Shown here: positions 2,706 through 62,760 of the stretch, one piece after another
Layout of the letters: every line of letters starts with the position of its first letter
Numbering within the stretch: the stretch's first letter is position 1
Source: Mobula hypostoma
Lineage: Eukaryota
Assembly: GCF_963921235.1 (NCBI RefSeq)
Contig: NC_086108.1
Coordinates: 40,054,001 to 40,118,000 of the forward strand
Direction: 5' to 3'
DNA: 64,000 nucleotides
Notes under the pieces: model-generated
What the model was told of the DNA's origin: nothing
The model's database searches: none
The model's input: only the letters and a program-made list of their open reading frames with translations
Program-made: the position numbers and the translations under genes

Positions 2706-2771
2706 GATTTGTAATGGAACAGAAGATTAAAGGTTTAAAAGTAGAGGTGAAAAAGAGAGCCCCGCTCCCAT

Positions 2772-4000
2772 GTGAAGAGTGCTCGGTCCCTGGGTGGACT
2801 GATAACAGTGCAGGATTCGAAGCCTCCTCAACCTACTGGTGAGCCACAGCACTCCAATGGACTGTTCAGACAAGCTGGAGCCCTGCAGAGTGAAAATGGG
2901 ACACTTGTGTCGATATGGAACAGGGTAGTGTTCTCAGATAGGAAAAGAAGTCAAAGGGAATCTTTCTGGCTGGTGATCATTGTAAAGCAACGGTGTGAGA
3001 CAATTTTATGGACAGAGCAGGAAATAGAAATCCTTAGAAATGAGGTGGAAGCATTGAATCAGCACCGTATCATCGTAGGGGAGGGTGTCCGTTCATCACA
3101 GGCCCGGGTTAAAGAACTGGAGGACATGGATACTGAGATAACCAGTCAGCTGGTAAAAGAGTGGCAGTTAGAGGCTGCCCGAAGTGCTAATGGGCAACCG
3201 GATGCTGTTAAGGTCCGAGCCTTGATGCTGCAGGGAGATGATCCTGACACGTGGATGTGGGATGGGAAGATCTGGCTCGATAGTGAGGATGGGGAAGAGA
3301 GAATAGAGGAGAGTCCTGTAAGAGGAAGTGGGATGGACAGTATAATGGGCTCCTGATTAAGGAACTGACAGAATTGAGGGATAGATATGGAGAAAAACTG
3401 GGGGGAGTATCTGGCCATGTGGCTATTGAGGATATGGGGTAGGGAGTATGCAGGGATGATTATTATAGTTAACCCTTCCTTCCTAAATGAGATTTAAAGT
3501 CCCAGGAGGAGAGGAGTGTGGTACAGGAAGGAACTAAAAGTTCGCCAGTGAGCTTTGATCACAGGGATATACGACAGAGATAACCCGCTGGAGGATCCTC
3601 ACTTATTGGGTCCTTCAAGACTGTAATGGAGCTGGAGGAATCGGGGGATAGATATTGACAAAAGACAGAGAACTGTGGCCATGGTGAGGAACCTGATTAA
3701 AACAGCAGCTCCCCATTTGAAAGGGTGGTGCTGCCCTCAATGGGACCAGTGATAGGAGATACTGTAAATGTAGCCGTCTGATCGCCGGAAGGATTAGAAG
3801 TTGTGGGAAAAGATGCCCATAGCAAAGTAAGTAGGCTGAACAAGCAGATGGGGGCGGTGGGGCAGTGGGGATTCCTGCTCGACCCATAAGGAAATGATTT
3901 TTAGTGCTGCCTAGGGCAGGGATCAAGCAGGGATCAGGTTGATTCCATTGCCACTCTCACCCTCTATGCGATGTGAAAGGAATATTGCCGGGGAGAGAAG
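2772..4000 (+). pseudogene. gag: ERV-L-type gag, frameshifted and with stops
   Basis: A coiled-coil segment precedes VKVRALMLQGDDPDTWMWDGKIWLDSE, resembling the ERV-L motif KVRALIGKEWDPxTWxGDVW. Next, across a frameshift, KELTELRDRYGEKLGEYLAMWLLRIW. A C-terminal RAGIK..DQVDSIATLTLYAM block lies near 3910-3975. Confidence 0.78.
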
Positions 4001-4269
4001 GGCAAAGAAACTGTTAAGGGAAGGGGATCATTCCCATAGGGGTCCCTTCTATCCCTCGCAGGTTCCTTATATCCTGCTCAGGGCTTTGTATATCCCTCAT
4101 TGGAGGATTTCCAAAAGGCTGTCGTTGACGTTCAGTGGCGGCATGGGTCAGGCGGTTGGTGGAGCCTGTCTGCCCCACTCCTGTAGGAATGGGGTCAGGG
4201 CTCTCAGCGGGTAGGCGCAGTGGCCTTTTCTCAGCTGGGAAGCCCATGGCCTTACATACCCAATGCAGT

Positions 4270-4405
4270 ACATCGGGGAAGGGTCGGGTGCAGCAACCAC
4301 ATGGGCCACCAGAGAGGGGGAGATAGTGGCAAATGGACCAGGGAATACGTGATGGTAGCGTTACTGGGGAAACAGGGAATGACACGTTTAAACATGCAGT
4401 GATTA
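4270..4405 (+). pseudogene. pol: Remnant of the pol (integrase) C-terminal tail
   Basis: VQQPHGPPERG(fs)EIVANGPGNT*W resembles the ERV-L pol end (VWV.PP...P...EV.A.G.GNT.WV). No protease, RT or RNase H motifs were seen upstream. Confidence 0.55.
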
Positions 4406-4429
4406 GCTAGATGGGAGTGAGAGTGTGTC

Positions 4430-6830
4430 TCCCTACATTGCAGAGTGACGACCTAATGGCAGCAGTGATGACGATGACCTGCTGCGTGAGCTCCTACATG
4501 TACTTGCAGGTGGCGTGCAAATATGCACATCGTACTACTGTTCCAGATTGCTGGATATGAATGACAACTCCATCTCATGCAGCGGAAGAGGTACCAATAA
4601 AACAATCACCTCCGTTGAAAAGGAAAACATGATTTGGAGGAACCTGCCTAGCTTCAGCTTTGGTATTCTGTTTCTAGGGAAGTGGGGAGGACTAGTCCAT
4701 TCCAATTAGACTCACCTCATAGTATGGCAACAGCCCTAAAGAACTTGAACCTTTGTAGCTCCCAGTGGAGTAAGTGATTTAAAGGCTGATATTTCCCAGC
4801 TTGTGATCTATCCAGTCCAAAGTTTCCAACTCTAAGAGTGATTCCCCAGCCAACAAGGAAGGGAAAGGAAGGTTGGTGTTGGCGCTATGATGAGCACAGG
4901 TCCAACCAGTCAGCAGGGTATGATGGGTATGAGCAAGAATGGTATCCTGGGACAACTGTGTCTATGCTGAATGGTGCTGTGAAGTTAGGCACTCCCTGGA
5001 CACTGGATGATACCTATTGTATATGCGGCTCCTAGGCTTACAGGTCTTATGGCTACCATTATCCAAGAAGTGAAGTGCTGAACGTGCATTGTTTTAGAGG
5101 CCTGGGCGAGCACCCTGTCCATGATGGTCGGCGTGGTAAGAGGCATATCACAGAGGTGGAAGGAGTTTGGATGCTAGTCTTTCCCCTCTGTGGTACGGCC
5201 AGGCTGTCCCAGGAAGCGATACATGGAAATGCTGGTCAATGAGATGACAATGGGGTTCAAGCAGGTGGAGGATGCGCTAACCCGGGTGTTGGCTGACATG
5301 GTAGCTTTTCAGGTGATCATGTTGCAGAATCGAAGGGGCTTAGATTATCTGCCTGCAGAAGGGACTGCCAGCTGTGTTGTTATTGGCTGAGAATGTTGCA
5401 CCTATATTGCTGACAAGTCAGGAAGCATTGCAAAAATGCCATCTCCTTCTCTCAATTCCTCCGTCTCCACTGCAACTGGTCTCAGGATGAGGCTTTCCAT
5501 TCCAGAACTAAGGAGGTGTCCTCTTTCTTCAAAGAAAAAGACTTTCCTTCCTGCACCATTAACGCTGCCCTCACCCGTATCTTTTCCATTTTGCGCCCGT
5601 CTGCCCTCACCCCATCCACCCACCACCCCACAAAGGATAGGGTTCTTCTTGTTCTCACCTACCAGCCTCCGCATCCAGCAAATAATTCTCCGTAACTTCT
5701 GCCACCTCCAACAGGATCCCACCACTAAGCACATCTTCCCCCTCTCCCCTCCCCGCAAATTTCACTCCTTAGGTGTCTCCCATTGTCCATTCGTCCCTCT
5801 CCACTGATCTCTCTCCTGGCACTTATCCTTGCAAGTAACAAATGCTGCACCTGCCCCTACATCTCCTGCCTCACTATCATTCAGGGCCCCAAACAGTCAG
5901 TCCAGGTGAGGCGACGCTTCACCTGTGAGTCTGTTGGGGTCATCCAGTGCTCCTGGCATGGTCTCCTGTATATTGGTGAGACCCGACGTAGATTGGAAAA
6001 CTGCTTTGTCGAACACGTACGCTCCATCTGCTAGAGAAAGCCGGATCTCCCGGTGACTACCTATTTCATTTCTGCTTCCCATTCTCATACCAACATGTCA
6101 GTCCATAGCCTCCTCTATTGCCGCGATGAGGCCACACTTAGTTTGGAGAGGCAACACCTTACCTTGCGTCTGGATAACCTCCAAACTGATGACATAAACA
6201 TCAATTTCTTGAACTTCTGGGAATTGTCCCCTCCTTCACCATTCCCCATTACTATTTCCCTCTCTCACCTTATCTCCTTACCTGCCTATCATCTCTCACT
6301 GGTGCTCCTCCCCTTTCGCTTTCTTCCATGGCCTTCAGTTGTCTCCTATCAGATTCCACCTTCGCCAGCCCTGTATCCCGTTCACCAAACGACTTCCCAG
6401 CTCTTTACTTCACCCCTCCCCCTCACCTATCACCTACTACCATGTACTTCCTGCTCCCTCCTCCACCTTCTTACTCTGACTTCTTATCTTTTTCCAGTCC
6501 TGATGAAGGGTCTTGGCCCAAAATGTCCTTTCCATAGGTGCTGCCTGGCCTGCTCAATTCCTCCAGAATTTTGTGTGTGTTACTTTGATTTCCAGATTCT
6601 ACAGATTATCTCTTGTTCGGGGAACATTTCTCACCAAGCTGACCATATCAATGGTTGGTGAATAAGATTAGGAAAATTGTGGACCAGTTCTGCTGCTTCT
6701 ATACCCTAGGGGGAAGCTGGTGGCCGTTTAGGGCACTGGGTGTTTGGTGGACTACTGTGATACACTGGATAGTGACTGTCAGCCTAATAGTGCTGGGTAT
6801 CGTTTGTATTTTTACGTCTTGTATGTAACA
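4430..6830 (+). pseudogene. env: Gamma-type env, split by a Penelope-like insertion at 5430-6616
   Basis: SU end TYCICGS*AY. Furin site RRGKR at 5129-5143. Immunosuppressive domain LQNRRGLDYL and CX6CC (CVVIG*ECC, 5373-5399). After the insertion come GNISHQADHI and the hydrophobic anchor WWTTVIHWIVTVSLIVLGIVCIF. The start is approximate. Confidence 0.88.
5430..6616 (+). mobile_element. Penelope-like element, 5'-truncated (GIY-YIG endonuclease, pyrimidine-rich 3' region, decayed hammerhead)
   Basis: FTCESVGVIQC..LLYIGETRRRLENCFVEH GIY-YIG motif. cagtcctgatgaagggtcttggcccaaaatgtc at 6495. Imperfect TSD tcaggaagcatt/tcggggaacatt. Confidence 0.85.
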
Positions 6831-8692: not shown

Positions 8693-8915
8693 TAACACAC
8701 ACAAAATGCTGAAGGAACTCAGCAGGTCAGGCAGCAAATATAGATGGAAATAAACAGTCAACGTTTTGGACGGAGACCCTTCATCAGGCCTCTCCATTGA
8801 GTCTCGGCCAAAAAACGTCAACTGTTCATTTCCCTTCATAGGAGGCTGCCTGATCTGCTGAGTTTCTCCAGCATTTCATGCGTGTTGCTCAAGATTTCTA
8901 TCATCTCCTGAATCT
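8693..8915. mobile_element. Inverted pair of Penelope-like 3' termini (foldback)
   Basis: acacaaaatgctgaaggaactcagcaggtcaggcagc...cccttcatcagg is followed by its reverse complement ...gctgcctgatctgctgagtttctccagcattt. Confidence 0.75.
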
Positions 8916-9354
8916 AGTGTATTAGCCAGAGAAACTAGATGCACTGTGCATATGTAGATCCTGCATCTAAGCTGACAGTTATGCGCAGTGTCAGTGTCGG
9001 TACTGATGGTCTGGACTGTGAAACTCAAGGAGGCTGTGTCTTCCGCTGTTTCCACTCTTGCAGGCTGAAGTTGGAATTCCCGGCCATTTGAAGAGAGTTT
9101 GCTGGAAGGGGCAGGATATGGCGAGGAAGGCAGGGGGGTGAATTCCTCTACTGCTTGTGGATTATGAATCAGGAGACAGAGTGTGGAAGAGGAGATGGTG
9201 GGCTGTGAGAAGGAGCACCGAGTGGACCTACCATCTTTCTCCATTGTTTTTGCCTGCTGTTAAAAAGGTCAAAAAATAAATCAGAAGTTAAATTTATTGT
9301 CATGTGCACAAGTGAAATGAAAAACTTACATAGTATCATATAAGCAACATTCAC

Positions 9355-9392
9355 CAGTCCTGACGAAGGGTCTCGGCCTGAAACGTCGACTG
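9355..9392 (+). ncRNA. Minimal type I hammerhead ribozyme
   Basis: CAGUC-CUGACGA-AGG(gucucgg)CCU-GAA-ACGU-C^GACUG: 5-bp stem I, intact core, stem II, palindromic ACGU stem III, predicted cleavage after 9387. Confidence 0.85.
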
Positions 9393-9454
9393 CACCTCTT
9401 CCTAGAGATGCTGCCTGGCCTGCTGAGTTCACCAGCAACTTTGATGTGTGTTGC
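9355..9454 (+). mobile_element. 100-bp Penelope-derived mini insertion starting at the hammerhead
   Basis: Near-identical to 18330-18430. TTCAC is duplicated at 9350-9354 and 9455-9459. Confidence 0.85.
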
Positions 9455-9579
9455 TTCACTAGAAAAACATAAGTTAAACATAAATCATACACCATTTTAA
9501 TACAAAGAACACAAACAGAATTTAAAAAATTGAAGTCTATTTTAGTGCAAATTAATCCAAATGAATGGTCAACACTTTG

Positions 9580-9708
9580 GGCTGGTGAAGGGACTCAGCT
9601 CGAAATGTCAACTGTTCATTTCCCTCCGTGGATGCTGCTTGACCTGCTGAGCTCCAACATTTTGTGTGTGTTGCTTCTCCAGCAGTAGTAGGCTTTCTTG
9701 TGTCTCCA
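9580..9708 (+). mobile_element. Older Penelope-like 3' terminus with decayed hammerhead
   Basis: ctggtgaagggactcagctcgaaatgtcaactg...gatgctgcttgacctgctgagc. Confidence 0.7.
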
Positions 9709-12199: not shown

Positions 12200-13210
12200 G
12201 TCCAGGTGTCTCTTAAAAGTTGTTACAGTCACTGGCTCCACCATCTCTTCTGGGAGCAAATTCCAGATACCGACCACTCTGTGTGAAAAGTTTATCACTG
12301 AGATCCTGTTTAAACCTCCTTTCTTTCACCTTAAGCTTATGTCAGCTAGTTTTAGACACCCCTACCATGGGAAATGACTATCTATCCTATCTATACCTCT
12401 CATAAATTTATCATGTCACCTCTCAGTTGACTTCGCTAGAAAATAGTCTCAGCCTGTCCAAATTCAAGCCCTCCAATCCAGGCAATATCCTTTAGTATCT
12501 TCTGCACCTTCTTCTAGCTTAATCACATTTTTCCTATGGTGTGCTAATCCGAACTGCACACTCCAAGTGTGGCCTAACTAACATTTTTACAAGAGTAGCA
12601 GCTCTCATCCCAACTCTTGTATTCAGTGCTTCAGACGATGAAAGGAAAACATATCAAACAGCTTCTTCACCACCTTGGTAATCTGTGTTGCCTCTTCTTT
12701 CAGGGATCTCTGCCCTAGAACCACTAGGTCTCTCTTTTCAGCAAAACTCCCTAGTTTAACTTGCAAAAATTCATGATTTTGCACTTCAGACACAAGGACA
12801 TCTGCAGATGCTGGAAATCCAAGCAACATACACAAATTGCTGGATTTTGCAGCACTTTGATTTAAATTTCATCTGCCCATTTTCCTGGTTGACCAATATT
12901 CTACAGTAACCTTAAACAGACTTCTTCACTGTCCACTGTATCACCAGTTTTGGTATCACCTGCAAATTTACTGAACACATAAGTTACATTCCCATCCAGA
13001 CCATTAATATATTTGACAAAAAACAGAGGACCCAGCACTGAACCCTGAGGCATACCAGAGGTCACAGCCTTTAATATCAGAGACAAACTTCCACCACCTC
13101 CCCCTGCCTCCTATCGCCAAGCCAGTCTTGTATCTAATAGACACATCAGACCGAAATCCATGTATTGTAAATTCTGGACCAGTCTACCATGCAGGACCTT
13201 GTCAAATGTG
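12200..13210 (-). mobile_element. Degraded CR1 LINE (RT to C-terminus)
   Basis: VTSGMPQGSVLGPLFFVKYINGLD..SKFAGDTKTG. A small Penelope-like fragment sits at about 12788-12850. Confidence 0.8.
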
Positions 13211-14973: not shown

Positions 14974-16164
14974 CACAGTTGCCAGATTATGAGACAAACA
15001 TCTCTTAGAAAGCAGCTTTTCCAGGAACTAAGCATAGATTCATCTTCTCACCTGCCTGTCATAAAGACTTTGATCTGGAATGAGTGGTGGGTTATAAGAA
15101 TAAAGTAAATCTGATGATGGATGTAAATATTGTTTCTCTCTGCTTTTGAGTTATGATTATTTCCCATAGCTTCTACTTTGCTTTGAATCAAGTCATACTT
15201 GGTTGGTTCAACTGTGACCCCAAGAGACAGGAGAGATCAGAGGTGATAATTTGTGACTTTGGAATTCTGGAAGAAACCAATACTTTCCCTGATCCTTGCT
15301 CTCACAGATTCCCACAAAGGAAGATTTCCATTATATCCAGACTGGACAAACACCATTCAAAAATCAGAAACAGGTATCAGATGATTCAGTATCTTGGGCA
15401 CAGTCCTTTAAATCCATCAATATTCAATTCAAAAGATGGGGGGGTGGGTACCATCTAAAATATTCTACTTCAGGCAAGTGGTAGTTTACATAAAAGGGAC
15501 ATTAAAAAAAAACATCCTAGTTGTATATTCTGCCTCTGACTTTTACACTTGAAATCTTCAGTAAATCTTCAGTATTAATTGTAATCATTTAAAGAGGAGC
15601 TGTTGTAAAATCATTCACAAGGACAAGAATGTCTGGCCACAGACAGAGTTGTTCTGAACTCCATTTTAAAGGCAAGGAAAACTGTCAGAAATACAGTACC
15701 TTATTGAAATCCATGTTTACTCATTTCAAATCTGTGGTTTCTCAGACACAGTTTGATTAAACCACCAAGGACTTCTGCCAAGGCTAAATGAAAATTCTTG
15801 AAGTATGCCTTGATTCCATATAGTGGTTACTACAGATGCAATAGTTGATCTATTAATTGTACATTTTATTACTTTTGTTCACTTGTTGCTCATAAACTGT
15901 ATGGACCAGTGTAGGCTAATAGTCCTTTCAGTAGGACAGGATCAACTTTATTCACCATTCTATATATACGTACATGTATTGGGAATTTGCTGTGGTGTTG
16001 ATCAAGGTGCAATACGCAACCAAAATAATCAACAATTATAAAGAATAAAGAAATATATATATATATATAAATTAAGGATTATATATAAAAAATTTCAAGC
16101 CATTCCAAGCTCTTTCTTATTACAGGTCCCCTCTGTCAGTACTACTTTTAGATTAAAAGACAAA

Positions 16165-16345
16165 CGGCTGAAAACTCAGAAGGTCATGCAGCATCTGCAG
16201 AAGAAAAAGAACAGTCAATTTTTCAGGTCAAGTCCCTTCAACTAGACTGAATGATAGGACGGGAGGTGGGAATAGCCATTATAAGATTGTGAGGGGAAAG
16301 AGTGGAGCAAGAACTGGCAAGTGAAAGGTGAACAGGGGTCAAAAG
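16165..16345 (-). mobile_element. Degraded Penelope-like 3' terminus
   Basis: ctgaaaactcagaaggtcatgcagcatctg...aacagtcaatttttcaggtcaagtcccttcaactagactg. Confidence 0.6.
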
Positions 16346-17109: not shown

Positions 17110-17295
17110 TCTTGAGCAACACACAAAATGTTGGACGAAATCAGCAAGTCAGTTAGGATCTATGGAGGGGAATAAACAGTCAACATTTCGGGCTAAGACG
17201 CTTCATCAGGACATACTCCTCATGAAGGTTCTTTGTCCAAAATATTGTCTGTTTATTCCCCTCCTTATATGCTGCCCGATTTGCTGAGTAACTGA
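17110..17295. mobile_element. Inverted pair of Penelope-like termini with decayed hammerheads
   Basis: ggaggggaataaacag...cttcatcagga | tcctcatgaagg...ctgtttattcccctcc. Confidence 0.75.
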
Positions 17296-17649
17296 GTAAA
17301 TATTTCTGTCTGTATCACCGTCCAGAGGAAGATGAGTTAACCTGCTCGCCTTCTGCTACTTTGTTCCCCCTCCTCCTGATCTACCCATTTCCTCTTACAC
17401 CTACCCCATCTCCAGCAGTCTATTACCCTGCTTCTTCCCTCTCCTTCACCCTCTCCTATCTGTTCAGCACTCACACACTCCTCTGACTGGGTTCCCTTCT
17501 CCTACTGTTCCCATCTGCCCACCCCATCTCTTCTATTTGATTCCATGCTCCACTGTCCTTTGCTATCAAATTCCATCTTCTGTAGCCCTTTGTTCTCTCC
17601 ACCCATCTCCTCCCAGCCTCTCTTTCCACTCTTCCCTCCTCCATTGTCT

Positions 17650-17914: not shown

Positions 17915-18023
17915 TTTGTTCAGGTTCTATGTTGTTGGAAAATATCAAAGATTTCCTCATATTCCTTTCTAATGTATTCATAATAGACAATTGATAATGC
18001 TGAAATAGACCCTGTGACCATTT

Positions 18024-18430
18024 CTCTAACTTCCGCTAATGCCCCACCTCCCCCTCGTACCCCATCTGTTATTTATTTTTATACACACATTCTTTCTCTC
18101 TCTCCTTTTTCTCCCTCTGTCCCTCTGACTATACCCCTTGCCCATCCTCTGGGTCCCCCCCCCCTTGTCTTTCTTCCCGGACCTCCTGTCCCATGGTCCT
18201 CTCATATCCCCTTTGCCAATCACCTGTCCAGCTCTTGGCTCCATCCCTCCCCCTCCTGTCTTCTCCTATCATTTTGGATCTCCCTCTCCCCCTCCCACTT
18301 TCAAATCTCTTACTAACTCTTCCTTCAGTTAGTCCTGACGAAGGGTCACGGCCTGAAACGTCGACTGTACCTCTTCCTAGAGATGCTGCCTGGCCTGCTG
18401 CGTTCACCAGCAACTTTGATGTGTGTTGCT
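18024..18430 (+). mobile_element. Young 5'-truncated Penelope-like element (3' region)
   Basis: Perfect flanking duplication ctgtgaccattt (18012-18023, 18429-18440), pyrimidine-rich body and an intact hammerhead. Confidence 0.85.
18330..18367 (+). ncRNA. Minimal type I hammerhead ribozyme
   Basis: UAGUC-CUGACGA-AGG(gucacgg)CCU-GAA-ACGU-C^GACUG. Confidence 0.85.
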
Positions 18431-19964
18431 GTGACCATTTAGCAGAGCTCCATTCCATACCCCATCCAAAGTATTTTTGCTCCACGGTTTATAGACAACA
18501 CCGCATTCATTGGAAATGGAAACATTTATTCAAATGCAAAATGCTTAAAATGAAAATGCGGAGGTAGAAAAGCACAAGACAGAGGACGTATCAAATGATA
18601 ATTCATGGTGTAAGCAGTTCCTGCTTCCTATTATATAACCCAGGGATCCTTGCACAGAGAAGAGCCAGGTTTCCATAAAAGACTTTGTGCAAAATCTTTC
18701 TTTAAAACAATATGTGGCTTTTATGAGCTATTGCATTCCTTAGTTCCATAGCTGTATTTTCTTCTGTGAGATCCAGGTGGAAGAAATGTTAATTTGTGTC
18801 TCTAACGAGGTGATAAGAGCTTTTCTAAAGAGCCTGAGATTGTAAAACTCGTATTCTTCATCTTGGAATACTTTATAAGAATTCCATACTGACTGGAGTA
18901 CTGGGGGGAAAAAAGCATGTAATGATGCAGGCATCCATTGAATTAAGGATATGTGCTAATTGTAAATAATTTCTGGCATTTGCTGAATGTCATTTTAATG
19001 AGATGCCATTCAGTGGCTGGTTTCCTTTTATATCTCACAGTACTTAATGTCACCTTCTTTCAGGGAATAAAACTAGCACTTATTAATGCACAGGACTATA
19101 ATCTATTCTTTAACTTGAAAGATTTGGAACAAATGGATTGCGGTGTGGTTTTCATTCCTTAGATTTTAAGGCTAAAAGAATCCACTATTTTAAATTAGGG
19201 TTTGAATATCCTCATCTACTTTCAAAAATAATAGAAGTGATTTCTAAAGGTTGGTTGTGAGATTAGTCTATAGTGAATTCTTTGACCTTGAAAGCTTTTC
19301 TTTGTCCTTATATTGTATTAACTGTACCCTAGAATCTACAAGTGCCTAAAATGCCCTTTTCCCCATGGACACCCACTCTTTTCCCTTCACTTTCTTTACA
19401 CATTTCAAGGTTTTCTTTATCAAAAGTAAATTTCAGCCCCCCCCCACCCACGATACATGAACTGTTGCTTTCCACAAAGTGCTAAACCCTCTAAACAAAC
19501 AAACAAACAGAATGTCATAGAGATTTAATTTATGCTGTTTCGTTCTCGCTGCGTTGTTGCCTAATCTGCATATGAACATTTGGTCTTAATCATAGAGTGC
19601 AATTGTTGAAGGAAGATTAAAAGCACATCATCACACAGTGATAAATGCCAGTAACAAACTCAAAATAAAGTAGGGTAATTGCTGTTCCCAATAAATATCA
19701 CAGCCATAATCTAAAATACAGCTGAAAAGATCTTGGTATATACTTATAAAACACTGCAGAAAATGAAGGGCTCCTTATTAACATGAGCAATTGATAAGGA
19801 TAAAAAAAATAAAACGTGAAGGTAGGCAAATCTTTATAATGGTATCGTAGGTTTAGATTTCCTGTGTTACAAGAGCCCATTGTCTTAGTCAAGTGCTGCT
19901 TTGGTGCCTTTTCTCAAGGTTCATGGAATGATTTAACACAGAAAGAAGCCATTGGGCCCATTTT

Positions 19965-21439: not shown

Positions 21440-22103
21440 TGATATTCGCTCCCCAGACAGTCCTTCCATGTGAGGCAACACTTCAACTGCAAAACGGTTG
21501 GGGTTGTCTGTTGCATACGGTGCTCCACCTGTGGCCTCCTCTACATTGGTGAGATCTGTCGTAAACTGGGGGACTGCTCCATCCGCCAAAGGCAGAATTT
21601 CCCGGTGGCCAACCATTTTAATTCCCATTCCCATTCCGACATGTCGATCCATGGCCTTGTCTTCTGTCATGATGAGGCCCCTCTCAGGGTGGAGGAGCAA
21701 CACCTCATATTCTGACTGGGAAGCCTTGAAACTAGTGGCATAAATATCGATTTCTCCTTCCGGTAAAAAAAAATTCCTTCCCTTTCCCTCTTCTTCTCTT
21801 CCCCACTCTGGCCTCTTACCTCTTCTCACCTGCCTGTCTCCTGCCCCAGTGACCCTCCTTCTTCCCTTTCTCCCATGCTCCACTCTCCTCTCCTATCAGA
21901 TTCCTTCCTCTACAGCCCTTTACTTTCCCACCAACCAGCCTTCACCCATCACCTTCTCGCCATCCTCCTTCCCCTTCCCCATCTTTTCATTCTGGCATCT
22001 CCCCACTTCCTTTCTGGTTCTGAGAAAGGGTCTTGGCCCGAAGCGTTGACTTCATTTCCATAGATGCTGCCTGTCCTGCTGAGCTCCTCCAACCATTTGT
22101 GTG
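21440..22103 (+). mobile_element. Penelope-like element 3' fragment with GIY-YIG endonuclease
   Basis: FNCKTVGVVCCIRCSTCGLLYIGE...PVANHFNSHSH...RVEEQHLIF, with a decayed hammerhead at about 22016-22052. Confidence 0.85.
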
Positions 22104-22105
22104 TA

Positions 22106-22770
22106 CAATCGGCCCTCCATATCCGCGGATTCAACCAACTGCAGATGGAAAATATTCGGAAAAAAAGTTCCAGGAAGTTCCAAAAAACAAAACCTGAATT
22201 TGCCGTGTGCCGAGCACTACGTTGAATCCACACGAATGAAGTGATGTGTAGCCTCACCCTGCTGTAGCCTCCCACCATTTCGCAGATCCTCAGTCTCTCT
22301 CTAGCACTCGTTGTTTGAGCACTGTTTGCCTCGCGTCTTGTTCGTTCGCTACTTGTGTTGTGAGCGAGAGGAAGGAGTTTAAGGCTAGTAAGGGATGGCT
22401 GGCTAGCTATGTAAAGCGCTACAGCCTCAAAAACTTAAAGATCACAGGAGAATCGCCATCGGCTAATGTCGAGGCAGCATCAGCGTTCCCAGAAGAGCTA
22501 CGATGGTTGCGTCTGTACTGAACGTGTACACTTTTTTTCTTGTCATTACTCCCTAAACAATACAATATAACAACTATTTACATAGCATTTACATTGTATT
22601 AGTATTAGGTATTATAAGTAATCTAGAGATGATTTAAAGTATACGGGAGGATGTGCATAGGTTATATACAAATACTACGCCATTTTATATAAGGGACTTG
22701 AGCATCCGTGGATTTTGGTAATCGCAGGGGGTCCTGGAACCAATCCCCCGTGGATACTGAGGGATGACTG
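22106..22770 (+). mobile_element. Tigger (pogo) non-autonomous DNA transposon, MER2/MER2B-like, with transposase fragment
   Basis: TA flanks, TIRs caatcggccctccatatccgcgg / ccgtggatactgagggatgactg, and internal KEFKASKGWLASYVKRYSLKNLKITGESPSANVEAASAFPEEL (end of the CENP-B-type HTH plus linker). Confidence 0.9.
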
Positions 22771-24740: not shown

Positions 24741-26890
24741 TTGTATGTGTAAGTATTTTTATTATTAATAAAGTTTGTTTTTGAAATATATATACAGGTT
24801 GAGTACTCCCATCTGAAATTCCAAATTCTGAAAACCCCCATAATCCAAAATTTTTTGAGTGCTGACATGATGTTCCAAATGGAAAATTCCATAAGGCGCT
24901 GGGAAGCTTTCCAGGCAATGTGCAGGTCTATGTCCACCACGAACAGTTCTGATAAGTGACCTCACACATGTAATGACCAGAAATTAATGAAAATGTAAAA
25001 AAAAAAGCTGTATAGACCAAAAAAATGAAGATCTTGATCATGTACTGAAAGAGTAGATTTGTCAGAGTCGAAGTGAATATATTCTACTTAATGGTACGCT
25101 GATCATGAAACAAGCTAAGATATATCACGACATCACGACAATCCGAAAATTGAAGGTTATTGTGAATATTCAGCAGGGTGATTGCGGAAATTTATGAAAT
25201 GGCAGAGCATTAAAATTTTAAAGCATCTGCTGATCACGAAGCAGCAGAGAAATTCTTTGATGAGCTTGCCAAGATCGTTGCTGATGAAAATCTAACACCA
25301 GAATAAGTCTACAATGCTGGTTATTTTTATACCTTACATAAAGCCTAAAAAAAGTAAAATACAAATACAGTGTACTGTAACCTTTTATCGAGAAAAGGCA
25401 TCATAGGTGGCGACTGAGAGCCTGCCGTTGTTTGTTGTTGTTAAGAAACATAGAAAAACTACAGCACAATACAGGCACTTCGGCCCACAATGCTGTGCCG
25501 AACATGTCCTTACTTTAAAAATTACCTAGGGTTACCCATAGCCCTCTATTTTTCTAAGCTCCATGTCCCTATGCAGGAGTCTCTTAAAAGACCCTATCGT
25601 ATCCAATTCCACCACCATCGCCGACAGCCATTTCCATGCACTCATCACTCTCTGCATAAAAAAACTGGCATCTCCTCTGTAACTACTTCCAAGCAGCTTA
25701 AAACTGTGCCCTCTCATGTTAGCCATTTCAGCCCTGAGAAAAAGTCTCTGACTATCTACACGACCAATGCCTCTCATCATCTTTACACCTCTATTAGGTC
25801 ACCTCTCATCCTTCATTGCTCCAAGGAGAAAAGACCAAGTTCACTCAACCTATTCTCATAAGACATGCTCCCCAATCCAGGCAACGTCCTTATAAATCTC
25901 CTCTGCACCCTTTCTATGGTTTCCACATCGTTCCTGTAGTGAGGCGACCAGAACTAAGCACAGTACTCCAAGTGTGGTCTGATTAGGGTCCTATATAGCT
26001 GTAACATTACCTCTCGACTCCTAAGCTCAATCCCATGAGTGATGAAGGCCAATGCACCATATGCTTTCTTAACCACAGAGTCAACCAGCACAGCAGCTTT
26101 GAGTGTCCAATGGACTCGGGTCCCAAGATCCCTCTGATCCTCCACACTGCCAAGAGTCTTACCATTAATACTATATTCTGTCATCACATTTGACCTACCA
26201 AAGTGAACCACCCCACACTTATCTGGGTTGAACGCCATCTGCCACTTCCCAGCCCAGTTTTGCATCCTATCAATGTCCCTCTGTAACCTCTGGCAGCCCT
26301 TCACGCTATCCACAACACCCCCAACCTTTGTGTCATCAGCAAATTTACTAACCCATCCCTCCACTTCCTCATCCAGGTCATTTATAAAAATTATGAAGAG
26401 AAAGGGTTCCAGAACAAATCCCTGAGGCACACCACTGGTCACCGATCTCCATGCAGAATATGACTCATCTATAACCAGTCTTTGTCTTCTGTGGGCAAGC
26501 CAATTCTGGATCCATAAAGCAAGGTCCCCTTGGATTCCATGCCTCTTGACTTTTTCAATAGCCTTTCATGGGGTACCTTATCTAATGCCTTGCTGAAATC
26601 CATATACACTACCTTTATCAACGTGTTTTGTTACATCCTGAAAAAATTCAATCAGGCTCGTAAGGCACAACCTGCCTTTGACAAAACCATGCTGACTGTC
26701 CCTAATCATATTATGCCTCTCCAAATGTTCATAAATCCTGCCTCTCAGGGTCTTTTCCATCAACTTGCCAACCACTGAAGTAAGACTCACTGGTCTATAA
26801 TTTCCTGAGCTATCTCTGCTCCCTTTCACGAATAAGGGAACAACATCTAAAACCCTCCAATCCTCGGGAACCTCTCCTGTCCCCATTGAT

Positions 26891-28074
26891 TGACATAGAA
26901 ACATAGAAAATAGGTTCAGGAGTAGGCTATTCGGCCCTTCGAGCCTGCACCGCTATTCAGTACGATCATGGCTGATCATCCAACTCGGACCCTGTACCTG
27001 CCTTCTCTTCATACCCCCTGATCCCTTTAGCCACAAGGGCCATATCTAACTCCCTCTTAAATATAGCCAATGAACTGGCCTCAACTGTTTCCTGTGGCAG
27101 AGAATTCCACAGATTCACCACTCCCTGTGTGAAGAAGTTTTTCCTCATCTCGGTCCTAAAAGGCTTCCCCTTTATCCTCAAATTGTGACCACTCGTTCTG
27201 GACTTCCCAATATCGGGAAGAATCTTTCTGCATCTAGCCTGTCCAATCCCTTTGGAATTTTATACGTTTCAATCAGATCCCGCCTCAATCTTCTAAATTC
27301 CAGAGAGTATAAGCCTAGTCGATCCAGTCTTTCATCATATGAAAGTCCTGCCATCCCAGGAATCAATCTGGTGAACCTTCTTTGTACTCCCTCTATGGCA
27401 AGAATGTCTTTCTTCAGATTAGGGGACCAAAACTGGACACAATACTCCAGGTGTGGTCTCACCAAGGCCTTGTACAACTGCAGTAGTACCTCCCTGCTCC
27501 TGTACTCAAATCCTCTTGCTATGAATGCCAGCATACCATTCGCCTTTTTCACCGCCTGCTGTGCCTGCATGCCCACTTTCAATGACTGGTGTATAATGAC
27601 ACCCAGGTCTCGTTGCACCTCCCCTTTTCCTAATCGGCCACCATTCAGATAATAACCTGTTTTCCTGTTTTTGCCACCAAAGTGGATAACTTCACATTTA
27701 TCCACATTAAATTGCATCTGCCATGAATTTGCCCACTCACCTAACCTATCCAAGTCACCCTGCATCCTCTTAGCATCCTCCTCACAGTTAACACTGCTGC
27801 CCAGCTTCGTGTCATCCGCAAACTTGGAGATGCTGCATTTAATTCCCTTGTCTAAGTCATTAATGTATATTGTAAACAACTGGGGTCCCAGCACTAAGCC
27901 TTGCGGTACCCCACTAGTCACTGCCTGCCATTCTGAAAAGGTCCCCGTTTATTCCCACTCTTTGCTTCCTGTCTGCCAACCAATTCTCTATCCACATCAA
28001 TACCATACCCACAATACCGTGTGCTTTAAGTTTGCACACTAATCTCCTGTGTGGGACCTTGTCAAAAGCCTTTG
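26891..28074 (-). mobile_element. Younger 5'-truncated CR1 LINE B nested in CR1 A
   Basis: 247-aa open RT segment with a distinct 3' UTR and CATAGAAA-repeat tail (as read on +). cattg is duplicated at both junctions. Confidence 0.9.
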
Positions 28075-29621
28075 CATTGTGATGCAAAGATCATTGCCAG
28101 AGGCTCGAAAATCTCCTCCTCGCCTCCCACAGTAGCCCGGCGTATATCCTGTCCGGTCCCAGAGACTTATCCAACTTAATGATATCCAAAAGCTCCAGCA
28201 CATCCACTTTCTTAATGTCTATACGCTCTATCTTTTCAATCCACAGTAAGTCATCCCTACAATCACCAAGATCCTTTTCCATAGTGAATACAGAAGCAAA
28301 GTATTCATAAAGTACCTCTGCTATCTCCTCTGATTCCATACACACTTTTCCACTGTCACACTTGATTGGTTCTATTCTCCCACATCTTATCCCCTTGCTG
28401 TTCACATACTTGTAGAATGCCTTGGGGGTTTCTTTAATCCTGCTCATCAAGGCCTTCTCATGGCCCCTTCTGGCTCTCCTAATTTCATTCTTAAGCTCCT
28501 TCCTGCTCGCCTTATAATCTTCTAGATCTCTATTATTACCTAGCTTTTTGAAGCTTTCGTAAGCTTTTCTTTTCTTCTTGACTAGTTTTTTAACAGTCTT
28601 TGTACACCACGGTTCCTGTACCCTTCCATCCTTCCCCTGTCTCGTTGGAACATACCTATGCAGAATGCCATGCAAATATTCCCTGAACATTTGCCACATT
28701 TCTGCCGTACATTTCCATGAGAATATCTGTTCCCAATTTATGCTTCCTAGTTCCTACCTGAAAGCTTCATATTCCCTCTTACTCCAATTAAACATTTTCC
28801 TAACTTGTCTGTTCCTATCCCTCTTCAATGCTAAGGAGATAGAATTGTGATCACTGTCTCCAAAACGTTCTCCCACTGAGAGATCTGACAACTGACCAGG
28901 TTCACTTCCCAATACCAGATCAAGTACAGCCTCTCCTCTTGTAGGCTTATTTACATATTGTGTCAGGAAACCTTCCTGAACACATCTAACAAACTCCACC
29001 CCATCTAAACCCCTTGCTCTCAGGAGATGCCAATCAATATTTGGGAAATTAGTATTTCCCACCACGACAACTCTGTTATTATTACACCTCTCCAGAATCT
29101 GTCTCCCTATCTGCTCCTCGATGTCCCCGTTACTATTAGGTGGTCTATAAAAAACACCCGGTAGATCTATTGACCCTTCCTGTTTCTAACTTCCACCCAC
29201 AGAGACTCAGTAGACAATCCCTCCATGACTTCTTCCTTTTCTGCAGCCATGACACTATCTCTGATCAACAGCACCCCCACCTCTTTTGCCTCCCTCCCTG
29301 TCCTTTCAGAAACATCTGAAGCCTGGCACTCTAAGTAACCATTTCTACCCCTGAGCCATCCAGGTCTCTGTAATGGCCATATCATAATAGCTCCAAGTAC
29401 TGATCCACCCTCTAAGCTCATCCACTTTGTTCATGATGCTTCTTGCAGTAAAATAGACACATCTCAATCCATCGGTCTGAGCGTATCCCTTCTCTATCAC
29501 CTGCCTATCCTCCCTCTCGCACTGTCTCCAAGCTTTCTCTATTTGTGAGCCAACTGCCCCTTCCTCCGTCTCTTCAGTTCGGTTCCCACCCCCCAGGAAT
29601 TCTAGTTTGAACTCTCCCCAA

Positions 29622-29712
29622 CACACATAAAAGTTGCTGGTGAACACAGCAGACCAGGCAGCATCTCTAGGAAGAGGTACAGTCGACGTTTCAGGCGAGA
29701 GCCTTCGTCAGG
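29622..29712 (-). mobile_element. 91-bp Penelope-derived mini insertion starting at the hammerhead
   Basis: Perfect 11-bp TSD actctccccaa (29611-29621, 29713-29723). Confidence 0.88.
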
Positions 29713-29715
29713 ACT
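29681..29715 (-). ncRNA. Minimal type I hammerhead ribozyme
   Basis: AGUC-CUGACGA-AGGC(ucuc)GCCU-GAA-ACGU-C^GACU, with a variant 4-bp stem II. Confidence 0.8.
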
Positions 29716-30799
29716 CTCCCCAATAGCCTTCGCAAACCTCCCTGCCAGGATATCGGTCCCCCCTCGGATTCAAGTGCAATCTGTCCTTTTTTGTACAGGT
29801 CACACCTGTCCAAAAAGAGGTTCCAATGATCCAGAAATTTGAATCCCTGTCCCCTGCTCTAATCCCTCAGCAACACATTTATCCTCCACCTCACTCTATT
29901 CCTGTTCTCACTGTGGTGTAGCGCAGGCAGTAATCCCAAGATTACTACCTTTGAGGTCCTGCTTCTCAACTTCCTTCCTAACCCCCTGTAGTCCGTTTTT
30001 ACTATCTCCTCCCTTTTCCTACCTATGTCGTTGGTTCCAATATGTACCACGACCTCTGGCTGTTCACCTTCCTACTTCAGGGTGTCATGTTCAACAGCTG
30101 TTTCAGGTATTCTCCCAATACTGCTTTCGTTACCCTGTGCTCTTTATATTCTCATTATATTAATGGTATGTAATAATTTTTACTGGTAAATGCATACAGT
30201 ATGAATGATGAACAAGTGTAAGACAAAGATTAAGTAGCACATAAATTCAGAGTCGGAAATGATGGCGATCACAAGCTATCTTATTATATAACAGTTCTGG
30301 CCCCAAGTACTTCAGCTAAGGGGTAGTCAATCTGAATAAAGAACTCAGGCTGCATTTAGACTCTGGCATGAAAATTTCCTGTATCTCTATCAGTGGAGGT
30401 TCCATTTGCTCTCCTGTGCTGCAAAGGATGGGCTGGCTTTGTTGTCTTGGAACGTTCCTTTCGGTTGGACAGTACTGCACCGTCTATCCCTTGCGGGAAA
30501 CCTGATGCAGGATAGATTTGGTCACTAATCAGTTAGGCTGTGGTCAGGGCTGTGAGGATAGGAGACAGATCCTTGTGCAAACAATCATTCTGTCAAAGTC
30601 CTTTGGCCCCGGTGACTACTTTGTTGGAAGTGAGACTGTTGTCCGTCTTTTCAGAGTGTGTCTTTGCTGGGAATGACTGGGAAGAGAGGCAGGGCCATTC
30701 CTGAAGGCTGTCCCCAAAATATGCAAAATGTAGGACTGGTGGGTCACCCGAGACAAATCTCCAATGCTGGGAAACCAAGTGTAAGATGCTATCCACAAA

Positions 30800-30980
30800 G
30801 GGACATGGACAGTTGATGTTTCAAGAGAAGGCCCTCCTTCTGGACTGGTTCAGATGAAGGATTACAACTCGAAATATTGACTATTTCCTTCAATAGATGC
30901 TACCTGACCCACTGGAGCTACAACAGAGTCTTGTTTTGTGCTCCAGATTTCAGCTTCTTCAGTCTCTTGTGTCTTGTCTG
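30800..30980. mobile_element. Degraded inverted pair of Penelope-like termini
   Basis: acagttgatgtttcaagagaaggccctccttctggactg | ttcagatgaagg..cgaaatattgact..gatgctacctgaccc. Confidence 0.6.
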
Positions 30981-33785: not shown

Positions 33786-34604
33786 CTCAATCTAAGTTCT
33801 TCTGTAGCCTTGCTACTTCTTCAAAACTACCTGACCCTCCACCTATCTTCATATCCTCTGGAAACTTTGCAACAAAGCCATCAATTCTTTTATCTTTTAT
33901 CTTTTATCTTGAACATCCTATACATAGATTTCTGCCTGAACAGTCAAACTTAAATGGGAGCAAGGTTTGTGGAACATTTTTGGTGAGAGATGGACAGGAG
34001 ACAGAAGGCCTGAGTCTAGGTCCTTCAACGCCATACTATGTGCTGGTGAATAATAGTCAACAGATATAGGGCCTGTTTAAGTTGGAGCATTGGGACAGCC
34101 ACCAGTACATGGGATGTAAAAAAAAAAGCACAGCACAGAATGCCCAAAACCAAGATAAACACAATGTTCATGCTTTGTAGGAGGTGCCAAGGAGGATCTG
34201 CATGAGAACAGAAAAATTTTTGCAGATTGTTCTTGAATTAATTTCTTGGGTTAATGGCAGTAGCATTCATGGCATGTTCTAATCTTGTCTGGACGCCAGG
34301 AGTTTGAGGGAGATTTTAGAAGCAACAATTTAGGAGGTGAAGGGAAGGTCACTTACAATAATTTTGCTTCTGTTCAATGTTTTGATAATTTGTGCTGTTT
34401 TATATGTTAATCAGTTCGTGTGTTAGGGCATGGTAAGGAAAGTAACATCTGCAAGTTAAGACAAGGTTTGAGGAATTATATGAAGTGCAATTTGTTCAAA
34501 TAAAGGAAAATATCTTGATTCTTATTCAGAGAAACATTTTCAAAGTTGAAATTATCTCCTATACTTGTGTATCTTAAGGGGATTCCCATCATTAGGATCA
34601 ATTG

Positions 34605-34725
34605 AGTCTTGATGAAAGGTTATAGCCCTGTTCATTTCTCTCAATTGATGCTGCCTGGCCCGTTGAGATCCTCCAGCATTTTGTGTGTGACTCTGGATTT
34701 CCAGCACCTGCTGAATCTCTTGTGG
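34605..34725 (+). mobile_element. 121-bp Penelope-derived mini insertion starting at a decayed hammerhead
   Basis: Perfect 14-bp TSD attaggatcaattg (34591-34604, 34726-34739). The insert begins agtcttgatgaaagg. Confidence 0.85.
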
Positions 34726-42409: not shown

Positions 42410-42565
42410 GGGGACTCGAGACTGCAGGTGCTAGAATCTGCCGCAACAAACAACCTGCAGGAGGAACTCAGTCAGACTGATGCAGAATTTCAACCCAAAA
42501 TATCAACAGCTCTTTTGGCCTGCACAGATGCTGCTCGACCTGATGAGATCCTCCAGCTGATCATT
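42410..42565. mobile_element. Degraded inverted Penelope-like termini
   Basis: actgcaggtgctagaatctg..gaggaactcag | ctgatgcag..cccaaaatatcaac..gatgctgctcgacctgatgag. Confidence 0.6.
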
Positions 42566-42569
42566 TTTT

Positions 42570-45331: not shown

Positions 45332-45397
45332 TATATGGATATCATCAGCTTTTATGAACGGAAGACTTCAGGCTGTTTGAAGAGATATAGAGATAGT

Positions 45398-45399
<2 letters not shown>

Positions 45400-45443
<44 letters not shown>

Positions 45444-45670
45444 AAATTATTCACTTTCAGAAGTTAAACTATCACTCTCCCCCCTCCCCCCTCTCCCCCC
45501 TCCCCCCCTCTACCCCCCTCTACTCCCCCTCTACCCCCCACCCCCCTCTCCCCCTCTCCCCCTCTCTCCCTACCCTCTCCCTCTCTCTACCCCCTTTCTC
45601 TCTCTCTCTTCCTTGCTCTCTCCTCCTGTTTCCCCCCTCTCTCTCCTTCACATTTTCTCTCTTTTCCACC
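45400..45670. repeat. (GA)n microsatellite followed by a C-rich polypyrimidine tract
   Basis: (GA)~18 at 45402-45438 and CCCCCT-type repeats at 45478-45600. Confidence 0.9.
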
Positions 45671-50827: not shown

Positions 50828-50967
50828 ACCGGTGGTATAGTGGTATGCACACCAGACTTCCAGGCAAGTGGTCCCAGGTTCAAGTCCGGCCGGCTCCTTG
50901 TACGTTTTCCATTTGTGCTGGGTTGAGTGTCAAGTGAGCAACTAAACCTCGTGGAAAACAGACAAAT
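50828..50967 (+). mobile_element. tRNA-derived SINE head
   Basis: A box tggtatagtgg and B box ggttcaagtcc, followed by a non-tRNA body and cut by the next CR1. Confidence 0.7.
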
Positions 50968-60754: not shown

Positions 60755-62760
60755 TCAATGGCTGCCCAATCAATCCACTCTCAATTATCAGCAAAGTTGT
60801 GGACAGTGAGATCCAACAGTGCAATTTGGCAGGTATAACTCACTGGAGCCGAATTTAAGATTTACCAGGACCACTCATTTCAAACCTGATGACAGCCTTG
60901 GTCAAAATAACTGAATTCCAGAGCAGAGGTATGAGTGATTGGCTGTGATATCAAAGCAGGCTATGATCAAGTGTACTAGTCCTGATGTGGGCTCTTGGCC
61001 CAAAACATCAATTGCTTCTTCATTTTCATAGATGCTGAGTTCCTCCAGCATTTTGTGTGTGTGGCATCAAAGGGATCTGGTAAAAATAAATTCAGTGGTC
61101 AATGAAACACTTCAGTGGTAAGAGTGGAATGTATGATGGAAAATGTTTCTGTTTGTTGGAGATTAAACTTCATGGCTTCACTGCAGGAATTCTTTATGGC
61201 AATGTTCTTGGCCCAACTGTATCTAGATGCTTCATCAGTGACCTTCAGTTTATAATTCCTCAGCATATTGTTACGTACCCCGTAACTGGGTTGCCAAACC
61301 AGCAGAAATGGATCACTCAGTTGGAGTCTGGATTACTAGAACTAAGAAAGTTTTATTAAAGAAACAAGCAACACAGTACTCTAATCAAACGGATAATAAA
61401 TGCAACAGTTCAGCAATGATAAACACACGTACACAGAATTAGGATAACAGGATCAATCAAGCTCTATCGTCGTCTAGGGGTAAATGACCAGTTTCAAAGT
61501 GACGCAAAGTTCAGTTCAATTGAATTCAGTTCAGTTCGCAGTAATCACTGCCATGGGAGATGGACGGTGGGGGGGAAGGAGAGAGAGAGCAAAACAAATG
61601 AATATTCAAACGGTTTCCACACAGACCTTCGCTATTCTTCGCAGTCAGCTTTCGGGTGAGCCCTTTGTGATGTCTTCTGAGGTCACCGACCGTGACTCCT
61701 CCGTTTCCAGATATGATCGTTTCTTTGCGGTGAACCTGGCACCCAGGCAAGGGCGGACACACACCAGGTTCCCGCTGATCGTGCCTTTCCACCCTGTGCG
61801 TCTATGGCTTGTCCCGCGACCAGCCTTCCAAAACTTCCCACCGACTTATGGGAGGCGCACCGCTTCCAGGGTCTCGTTACCTCGTGGTGTTGTGTGTGTC
61901 TTGCCTTAGCGAACCTGTCCCTTTTTATCCCCCTGCTGGGGCATCACCTGTCCATCACTTCAAACAGTTCAGGGTTCAAAGGGGGAGCCGATCTTGACAG
62001 CTCTCCTTCCGTTAAACTCTCCCATCCCTTCATTAACATCTCCAAATGCTGCTCCATTGTTTTCCTTATCTCTCTTTCTCTTGAAGACAGGTGGCAGACC
62101 AACTGCTGATTCCACTGGTGCCAGCACAGGCCAGCTAACATCTTAATCTATGTGTATTCTCGTCACAATATGAAGCAGTCCGAGGTAACATTTGGGCTGA
62201 TAAATGGCAATTAACATTTGTGCCATAAAAATGAAAGATGGAAAACATCTACAAAAAGAGAAATTCTAACCACTTACCCTTGATATTCAGTGGCACCTCC
62301 CTTCCTAAGCTCGCCAACATTAAAATCTTGAGGGTCACTATTGACCAGGAACTCAACTGGACCATAAGCGCCATACCCAAAAAAGTAGGCCCGAAACTGG
62401 AAATGATGCGGTGAGTGGCTCAATGCTTGACACCCCAAGAGCTTCCCAGAGCGAAGTGCTCTCAACTGGTGAGATAAATGCAAATCTAATAACACTTAAG
62501 AAGCTCCCATAACGTAGGACAAAACAACCTGCTTGATTCATACTCCTGCAGGCTTCCCTCCAACTTGCACACCATCCTGATTTGGAAGGATAGTCTCTTC
62601 CATCATTGCTGGCTTTGTACCCTGGAACTCCCTATCCAACAGTACTATGAAATTACCTTCAAGAGAAGGATTGGAGCGATTCAGGAAGATGGCCCAGCAG
62701 TGCCTTCTTAAGGGCAATTAGATGGTGATAAATGGTGGGTTTGCTGATGAAGCCCATCAA
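60755..62760 (+). mobile_element. Ancient CR1-type LINE, interrupted by a Penelope mini insertion (about 60978-61060) and a solo LTR
   Basis: Degraded RT-like DNA (gttcttggcccaact..tgcttcatcagtgacctt, gggctgataaatggcaattaacattt) and tail ccttcttaagggcaattag. Confidence 0.6.
61269..62167 (-). mobile_element. Solo LTR (899 bp), Gypsy- or ERV1-type
   Basis: TGTTACG...CGTCACA inverted termini, 4-bp TSD ATAT (61265-61268, 62168-62171) and minus-strand AATAAA near 61352-61357. Confidence 0.85.

Follow-up and report, generated by a model that had tools for sequence, protein, structure and literature searches.

The question raised by this locus is what the hammerhead ribozyme of Penelope-like elements (PLEs) does. 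The window, a 64,000-nucleotide stretch of the Mobula hypostoma genome analyzed at its full length, contained a high-copy young family with sharp 5' and 3' boundaries, which allows beginnings, ends and jumps at the cut site to be counted. On the role of cleavage in transposition the window was mostly negative (none of 16 copies started at the cut site), and a few genome-wide contig joints perhaps speak for such a role.

Three copies of a hammerhead motif had been flagged by the sequence-only reading, and the coordinates and the motif proved right for all three, each having the full core, a stem I and the palindrome ACGU. The first of these was:

9355..9392, + strand: copy 1, intact minimal type-I hammerhead motif with a 5-bp stem I, a bulged A, stem II GGGU/GCCU, stem III ACGU and a predicted cut at 9387/9388.

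Copy 1 was laid out as the 5' strand of stem I (9355-9359), CUGACGA (9360-9366), GAAA (9380-9383), ACGU (9383-9386), C17 (9387) and the 3' strand of stem I (9388-9392). Copy 2 (18330-18367, + strand) had its core at 18335-18362, a predicted cut at 18362/18363 and a terminal U-G pair in stem I; copy 3 (minus strand, 29715-29681) had a predicted cut at 29685/29684. The motif order was the same in each copy, namely: stem I 5' strand, CUGACGA, stem II, GAAA, CGUC, stem I 3' strand. Stem I, which closes the motif (type I), was 5 bp, 5 bp (one U-G) and 4 bp in copies 1, 2 and 3. The core CUGANGA / GAAA / NUH was lesion-free at 13 core positions, and stem III was the palindrome ACGU, in 3/3 flagged copies.

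A minimal-hammerhead descriptor that demanded the core, 3 bp or more in stem II, pairing at 15.2-16.2 and 4 bp in stem I matched the window three times, exactly at the flagged places, as opposed to 0 matches in 100 Markov-1 random 64-kb sequences. Rfam 15 covariance models gave no hammerhead family among 24 matches, nor in a further search with one match, presumably because these models do not cover the minimal form. Two pattern scans of metagenomes found 0 loci each.

The flagged motif is of a known kind, the minimal hammerhead of PLE pseudo-LTRs (pLTRs) (Cervera and De la Peña, 2014; PMC4209133), to which it adds one more lineage. Its earlier assignment to the Penelope-associated minimal hammerheads whose stem III is a palindrome held: stem III was ACGU in every flagged copy, and two of the 16 copies of the surrounding unit were attached to decayed Penelope-like endonuclease sequence. 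Features shared with the motif as described in PMC4209133 were the type-I core, a helix I of 4-5 bp, a single nucleotide that separates position 9 from 10.1, a loopless palindromic 15.2-16.2, and placement in a pLTR, mostly as single dispersed copies with close pairs on opposite strands. In contrast to that description, helix II was 4 bp here and 7-8 bp in the schistosome families, the 10.1-11.1 pair was G-U or A-U in the three young copies, and copies varied by CpG decay and not by covariation. The terms shark, skate, Callorhinchus and Leucoraja did not occur in supplement file 2 of PMC4209133; file 1 may list cartilaginous fishes.

Stem II had been described as AGG/CCU in two copies and AGGC/GCCU in the third. 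The second half of that description stands, as AGGC/GCCU forms in copy 3. The first half was a mis-register: in copies 1 and 2 the predicted stem II was GGGU/GCCU behind a bulged A (pair probabilities 0.86-0.97), and AGG/CCU reached only 0.02. Copy 3 alone formed AGGC/GCCU, via a G>C change and a 1-nt deletion absent from the other window copies; among the contig variants listed, no deletion at that place reached 3%. What had been taken for compensatory pairing between copies thus comes down to the mis-register and to a change in copy 3 only, with no covariation above shuffles. The unpaired nucleotide between 9 and 10.1, a described trait of PLE minimal hammerheads (PMC4209133), was kept by the older family and by copies 1 and 2 but was lost in copy 3. 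At 10.1-11.1 the pair was G-U in copies 1 and 2 and A-U in copy 3, in place of the conserved G10.1-C11.1, which is taken here as a tendency described in PMC4209133 and not from its descriptor figure. G-C was kept in 8/13 aligned copies, and C11.1 in 38% of the depth of a DNA sequencing run (X1, below); the G-U of copies 1 and 2 is due to a C>U change at the C11.1-G12 CpG. The element family is best filed under the PLE minimal hammerheads, and the three flagged copies may be treated as a derived subfamily that would work like them.

The motif opened a unit of about 100 bp consisting of ribozyme and tail. An HMM of this unit, built from 10 window copies, gave 19 matches at E up to 1, of which 16 were below 1e-4; the reversed-window control gave one match (E=0.54). 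Thirteen of the copies at E<1e-4 were older, against an earlier count of about ten. The copies and their context were as follows:

9356..9455, + strand: solo ~100-bp pseudo-LTR unit of the young subfamily, starting at unit position 1-3.
18024..18428, + strand: young 5'-truncated insertion with a ~307 bp pyrimidine-rich 3' UTR, an intact hammerhead (18330-18367) and a tail.
29619..29715, - strand: young solo unit with an intact hammerhead (29715-29681), inside LINE-like sequence.
5432..6600, + strand: 3' end of an older decayed element, with an RT-thumb-like piece, a Cys linker and GIY-YIG-type endonuclease piece, a 3' UTR and a decayed hammerhead at 6496.
21451..22106, + strand: 3' end of an older decayed element, with an endonuclease-like piece, a UTR, a decayed hammerhead at 22016 and a tail; 64% identical to 5887-6578.
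16155..16340, - strand: older copy with roughly 90 nt of UTR (by eye), a decayed hammerhead at 16248 and a tail.
8694..8889, no single strand: head-to-head pair of older units, the left arm from position 1 and the right arm from about position 12; arms 61/86 identical.
17115..17309, no single strand: head-to-head pair in which the arms meet at unit position 1 of each, a single nt separating them; arms 60/89 identical.
30754..30940, no single strand: head-to-head pair whose arms touch exactly at their position 1 (30846/30847); 44/84 identical between arms.
34605..34725, + strand: older solo unit with an extended tail, beginning exactly at position 1; 14-bp target duplication (34591-34604, 34726-34739) and an 11-nt deletion across the cut site.
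9578..9677, + strand: older decayed solo unit, its 5' edge only roughly placed.
42446..42567, no single strand: older unit (42473+); before it lies a short tail fragment in inverted orientation, a weak match (E about 1).
60978..61063, + strand: older solo unit from position 1; its first bases recur ahead of it as a 3-nt inverted copy.

The young copies were 90/95 to 93/96 identical along the unit, and the young and older subfamilies were only ~70-74% alike. Perfect target duplications of 12, 11 and 14 bp flanked the 18331, 29715 and 34605 copies. That of the 18024..18428 insertion lay at 18012-18023 and 18429-18440, and that of the 29619..29715 unit (29611-29621, 29713-29723) overlapped both ends by microhomology. 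The LINE-like sequence that hosts the latter unit resembles, we presume, a CR1-type ORF1. Around the 9356..9455 unit a probable imperfect 8-bp duplication, TTCACCAG / TTCACTAG, was read by eye; the repeat tool gave no direct repeat of at least 10 nt in these flanks. Within 1 kb, at 8694-9677, lay four units, namely the young copy, one older solo unit and both arms of a head-to-head pair; this local cluster may be due to target preference or to chance. A fragment at 12800-12852 (- strand), a weak match, contained only the last part of the tail and a long tail extension.

A pyrimidine-rich UTR (0.75-0.87 pyrimidine, compared with 0.32-0.55) preceded the unit in 4/16 copies, two of which had decayed coding sequence further upstream; the remaining 12/16 had no body. 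The hammerhead followed UTR and endonuclease-like coding sequence at both 6496 and 22016, and the UTR of the 18331 copy was 68% like that of the 6496 copy. Upstream of 6496 the pieces were an RT-thumb-like one (5432-5674) and a Cys linker with endonuclease (5834-6226, one stop). Their order (thumb-like, Cys-rich linker, GIY-YIG, UTR, hammerhead, tail) is the layout of an endonuclease-positive PLE. Compared with the GIY-YIG protein P0004, whose own PF01541 match was above cutoff, the coding pieces scored 39% over 127 aa (E=1e-22) and 43% over 80 aa (E=1e-17). The coding pieces also matched, at 64%, a protein labelled Hypanus sabinus (a stingray) and filed under an unrelated name. Pfam matched 0/3 proteins from the decayed coding pieces, the local endonuclease piece included. 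By eye, a Cys cluster, KCCTCP (with CK upstream in another frame), lay just before the endonuclease, and protein P0003 had CKRKCYTCP. This possible Zn-finger-like linker between RT and endonuclease, a trait common to Neptune and Nematis, suggests one of these two (PMC8557442); the carrier is probably an endonuclease-positive PLE of the Neptune type. P0003 itself is a Penelope-like endonuclease fragment deposited as 'mucin-2 isoform X2', likely a mis-annotated repeat-derived gene model.

The best explanation, to which we give a probability of about 0.78, is a minimal type-I hammerhead in the pLTR of an endonuclease-positive Penelope-like retrotransposon, probably Neptune, that was heavily amplified in a cartilaginous-fish genome, the flagged copies being recent and dead on arrival. 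The two ACGU palindromes of a pair of ribozymes would pair and supply the missing helix III; the RNA would be cut after GUC, and the cut would trim or circularise the transcript. The ribozyme would matter only in full elements with two pLTRs, or in the RNP of the element, where it most likely works weakly and with help, and the dispersed copies would be passengers. Solo and head-to-head units may, less surely, be short cDNAs primed internally at the tail end whose synthesis ran until the RNA ended, 5', at stem I's first base, which probably is the transcription start of templates left mostly uncleaved. Among the points against this explanation, the young copies have G-U or A-U at 10.1-11.1, and the window contained no core RT of a PLE and no full element, so that the clade and an active master are putative.

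The young family is very abundant. In the DNA run X1, from which the window itself may come, 121,797 public contigs aligned on 18100-18500; two runs labelled here, by a guess, as RNA gave 6342 and 5813. In total, 18 of the 24 runs listed contained at least half of the words, and in the raw-read run X21 only two reads aligned. Summed contig depth, used neither as copy number nor as expression, was higher over the ribozyme-tail part in the RNA-labelled runs.

Across the window, the start lay no more than about 4 nt from stem I's first A in 11/16 copies and at about position 12 in one, and four carried more body. When only independent events were counted, 9/13 stopped in that 9-nt interval (p about 1e-13 under a rough constant-hazard model with approximate body lengths). 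A tail-only HMM gave 21 matches at E up to 3; all 16 below 1e-4 had ribozyme-derived sequence upstream, such that none, head-to-head pairs included, started at the cut site; the other five matches were weak. Among the six X1 rows listed, 5' loose ends were only at 18331 (226 contigs, a count mixed with older subfamilies whose UTR simply differs) and 18332 (122 contigs with heterogeneous AT-rich flanks). The 3' ends clustered at 18427-18430 (18427, 18429, 18430). The leading AG is element-derived, since the AG at 34605 follows a perfect target duplication and the arms at 30846/30847 abut at position 1. The first base of stem I also fits what we take to be the initiator consensus, YYANWYY. Together, starts at position 1 and the absence of cut-site starts suggest that the template RNA starts at the ribozyme's first base and is mostly copied uncleaved at this ribozyme.

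In the Poseidon element of Anolis carolinensis (Frangieh et al., 2024; PMC11167929), reverse transcription initiates internally at the tail and mostly uncleaved RNA is used. The X1 pattern of 5' and 3' ends matches this internal initiation and use of uncleaved RNA, and the simplest reading of that geometry is a short cDNA from the tail to the RNA 5' end at position 1. As in Poseidon, whose hammerhead precedes fixed 3' ends by ~100-130 nt, whose tail may be extended and whose main template is uncleaved RNA, units here ended at 18427-18430 plus a common extension (X1 contigs). The systems differ in that the element here appears to be of the Neptune type, that the young subfamily has ACG where the anole ORF begins, and that the 5'-end pile-up at the ribozyme's first base is not mentioned in the available part of PMC11167929.

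The pairs resemble the inverted 5'-truncated pLTRs of endonuclease-positive PLEs (Craig et al., 2021, PMC8557442; Arkhipova et al., 2013, PMC3846280), which share head-to-head copies, palindromic junctions, an optional tail of 30-40 bp and solo pLTRs. The difference is that here the arms were the ~100-bp unit only, joined at the ribozyme's first base. At 60975-60980 the 3-nt inverted copy before the solo unit resembled a remnant of hairpin opening, in one case.

The 5' edge may instead mark a 3' splice acceptor (AG|TCC), or it may stem from an antisense template on which synthesis primed itself, or from a DNA intermediate resolved by an endonuclease. Taken together, these are possible and on the unlikely side. 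Self-priming has been proposed for head-to-head palindromes (PMC3846280). The splice acceptor, the main rival to a transcription start, draws on a pyrimidine tract and AG in all four body-bearing copies (GG in 22016), a TACTAAC upstream of 18331, and a Drosophila virilis intron that ends at the 5' end of helix I (PMC4209133). It is weakened by solo copies that retain the AG (34605, behind its target duplication) and share no upstream exon, by a candidate branch A at 18316 that is replaced in ~59% of the depth of X1, by a UTR that is pyrimidine-rich throughout anyway, and by the absence of a spliced joint to 18333 among the RNA-labelled rows listed.

Against a mostly uncleaved template, there were hints that cleaved RNA is sometimes used. 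Two of the 23 distinct joints listed started at C17 (18362) and led to 18318 and 18328 (nominal p=0.003, for joints that come from 15 of 40 and 12 of 43 rows listed and whose kind is not given). Deletions at the cut site were present in two older copies, one of ~13 nt beginning right after C17 at 6496 and one across the site at 34605. Template jumps onto a cleaved 3' end would be expected to produce such joints and deletions, which are treated as a lead only. As proof of cleavage the junctions were not accepted, as one of the two could come from a copy with G1.1>A that was clipped 3 nt too soon; nor was the 6496 deletion accepted as a cleavage trace, a possible 2-nt microhomology giving another reading.

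A joint reading of boundaries and junctions, which we hold tentatively and at well below even odds, is that the genome records replication intermediates at base resolution. The transcript would start at nucleotide 1 of the hammerhead, solo and head-to-head units would be strong-stop-like cDNAs that failed to jump or that paired, and a minority of insertions would have template-jump junctions exactly at the cut site. If this were true, the cut-site junctions would document directly, in genomic sequence, both in vivo cleavage by the minimal hammerhead of a vertebrate PLE and the use of its cleaved ends in transposition. Neither base-resolution intermediates nor such a reading of cut-site junctions was found in the parts of the literature searched; Lünse et al. 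(2017), which may describe this variant, lay outside that search.

Published activity of such motifs is low. Minimal PLE motifs have no stable stem III alone, and their monomers were inactive and their dimers weak in vitro (PMC4209133). Cleavage of the anole motif depends on the element's protein, and RNA-seq ends were not found at the site (PMC11167929). Among Xenopus retrozyme dimers, 1/9 was cleaved and 8/9 were not (10.64898/2026.07.22.740005).

The predicted fold of all three flagged monomers was a rod, with the core bases G5-G8 paired to C15.2-C17 (GACG with CGUC). For copy 1 the minimum free energy of the rod was -12.6 kcal/mol compared with -8.6 kcal/mol for the open core, i.e., 4 kcal/mol lower. 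Two rods (-25.2 kcal/mol) were ~10 kcal/mol lower than a double hammerhead (-14.7 kcal/mol), counting nearest-neighbour terms only and ignoring the tertiary energy of the core.

Core lesions were found in 13/13 older copies, and G12>A (GAAA to AAAA at a CpG) in 6/13, in agreement with the earlier claim of decayed cores that often show this change. CpG sites of the motif were changed in 33/71 cells. Outside CpGs the core differed in 16/124 cells (12.9%) compared with 97/513 (18.9%) in the tail (p=0.15), a small test of 13 copies whose point estimate leans to somewhat better preservation of the core. In neither stem II register did covariation rise above shuffles (333/500 and 193/500 shuffles at least as high) in the 13/16 copies aligned, 6496+, 8790+ and 34605+ being omitted for deletions or truncation in the motif. 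There was thus no significant excess of conservation or covariation of core and stems over the copies; among dead copies covariation is not expected. Three double changes from C15.2-G16.2 to U-A were rejected as covariation and were two-strand CpG decay. The window copies decay like junk DNA, with no significant constraint, and the three flagged ones are best read as intact because they are recent, dead-on-arrival insertions. The 13 tested core positions were intact, CpGs excepted, in both the young subfamily and the older majority sequence.

Among the 40 of 78 X1 variants listed, CpG decay in stem III (8.7% and 10.0%) was equal to that at the tail CpG (10.2%) and close to that in loop II (11.4% and 13.0%). 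In the RNA-labelled runs it was 2.2-4.4% in stem III and 10.4% and 4.8% at the tail CpG. The lower decay of core CpGs in the RNA-labelled runs than in DNA (2-4% vs 9-10%) could reflect age bias or selection on transcribed copies.

An unlikely alternative for the young subfamily is a non-catalytic motif, i.e., a structural or protein-binding element at the RNA 5' end, with N7=C and U11.1 favouring the closed hairpin. The inactive rod gains 1.8 kcal/mol in stability from N7=C, and stem II loses 1.9 kcal/mol through U11.1; 0/16 copies start at the cut site, and catalytic mutants had no effect on insertion in vitro in the anole (PMC11167929). However, the anole motif does cut with protein help (PMC11167929), and a core kept at 13 positions, CpGs excepted, in units only ~70-74% alike points to selection on the masters.

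In another reading the ~100-bp unit is no by-product of full elements; it would be a non-autonomous element in its own right, SINE-like or a retrozyme, copied from masters of its own. Its sharp common 5' edge, fixed 3' ends, target duplications and 12/16 bodiless copies fit this, and non-LTR retrozymes (Cervera and De la Peña, 2020, PMC7229834; Li et al., 2026, 10.64898/2026.07.22.740005) are likewise short, non-coding, hammerhead-bearing and related to PLE pLTRs. It is nonetheless improbable: the young solos share diagnostic letters with the UTR-bearing 18331 copy (93/96, 90/95), and the older solos resemble older body-bearing copies. Retrozymes are direct tandem repeats, whereas direct tandems numbered 0 among the 16 window copies and the three full pairs were all inverted. 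The 2026 survey covered one chondrichthyan genome.

Least probable of all is that dispersed intact copies, paired in cis or in trans, work in host transcripts and cut many pre-mRNAs: the presence of three intact copies within 64 kb, two of them 9 kb apart on one strand, and the abundance of the unit in the RNA-labelled runs, where 6342 and 5813 contigs aligned and summed depth was higher over ribozyme and tail, would favour it, but the predicted monomer rod sequesters the core and so makes wide cleavage of host transcripts unlikely, the copies are dispersed or inverted and without constraint, no host gene was identified over them, published monomers are inactive and dimers weak (PMC4209133), protein-dependent or uncut (8/9 Xenopus dimers; 10.64898/2026.07.22.740005), and anole RNA-seq had no ends at the site (PMC11167929), so that the many self-cleavage sites in transcripts suggested by the sequence-only reading are unlikely.

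Apart from these readings, A>G variants at 18243, 18268, 18271, 18369 and 18379 were at 8-16% in the two RNA-labelled runs compared with 0.1-3% in X1, and A>G places numbered 10 and 13 in the former and 3 in the latter. The excess fits A-to-I editing of sense transcripts in dsRNA formed by inverted copies; the runs are possibly from different individuals.

Other repeats were also present in the window. Decayed endogenous-retrovirus-like sequence lay at ~2750-5430 and beyond 6600 (+ strand). It included an ORF (2751-3356) that we take to be gag-like, for which Pfam gave no match, and an env transmembrane-like piece that had a weak TLV_coat match (E=0.0035, below cutoff) and was interrupted by the Penelope-like insertion. 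LINE fragments with endonuclease and RT Pfam matches, presumably of CR1/L2 type, were located at 46400-49800, 25950-28750 and 50927-51388 (all - strand), and a different LINE fragment at 36088-37282 (- strand) had an RT match and a C-terminal PF09004 match. A 2-kb degenerate CA/CT microsatellite array at 53000-55200 was the source of long spurious ORFs, and a purine/pyrimidine tract at 45380-45540 had many sub-threshold Rfam miRNA matches.
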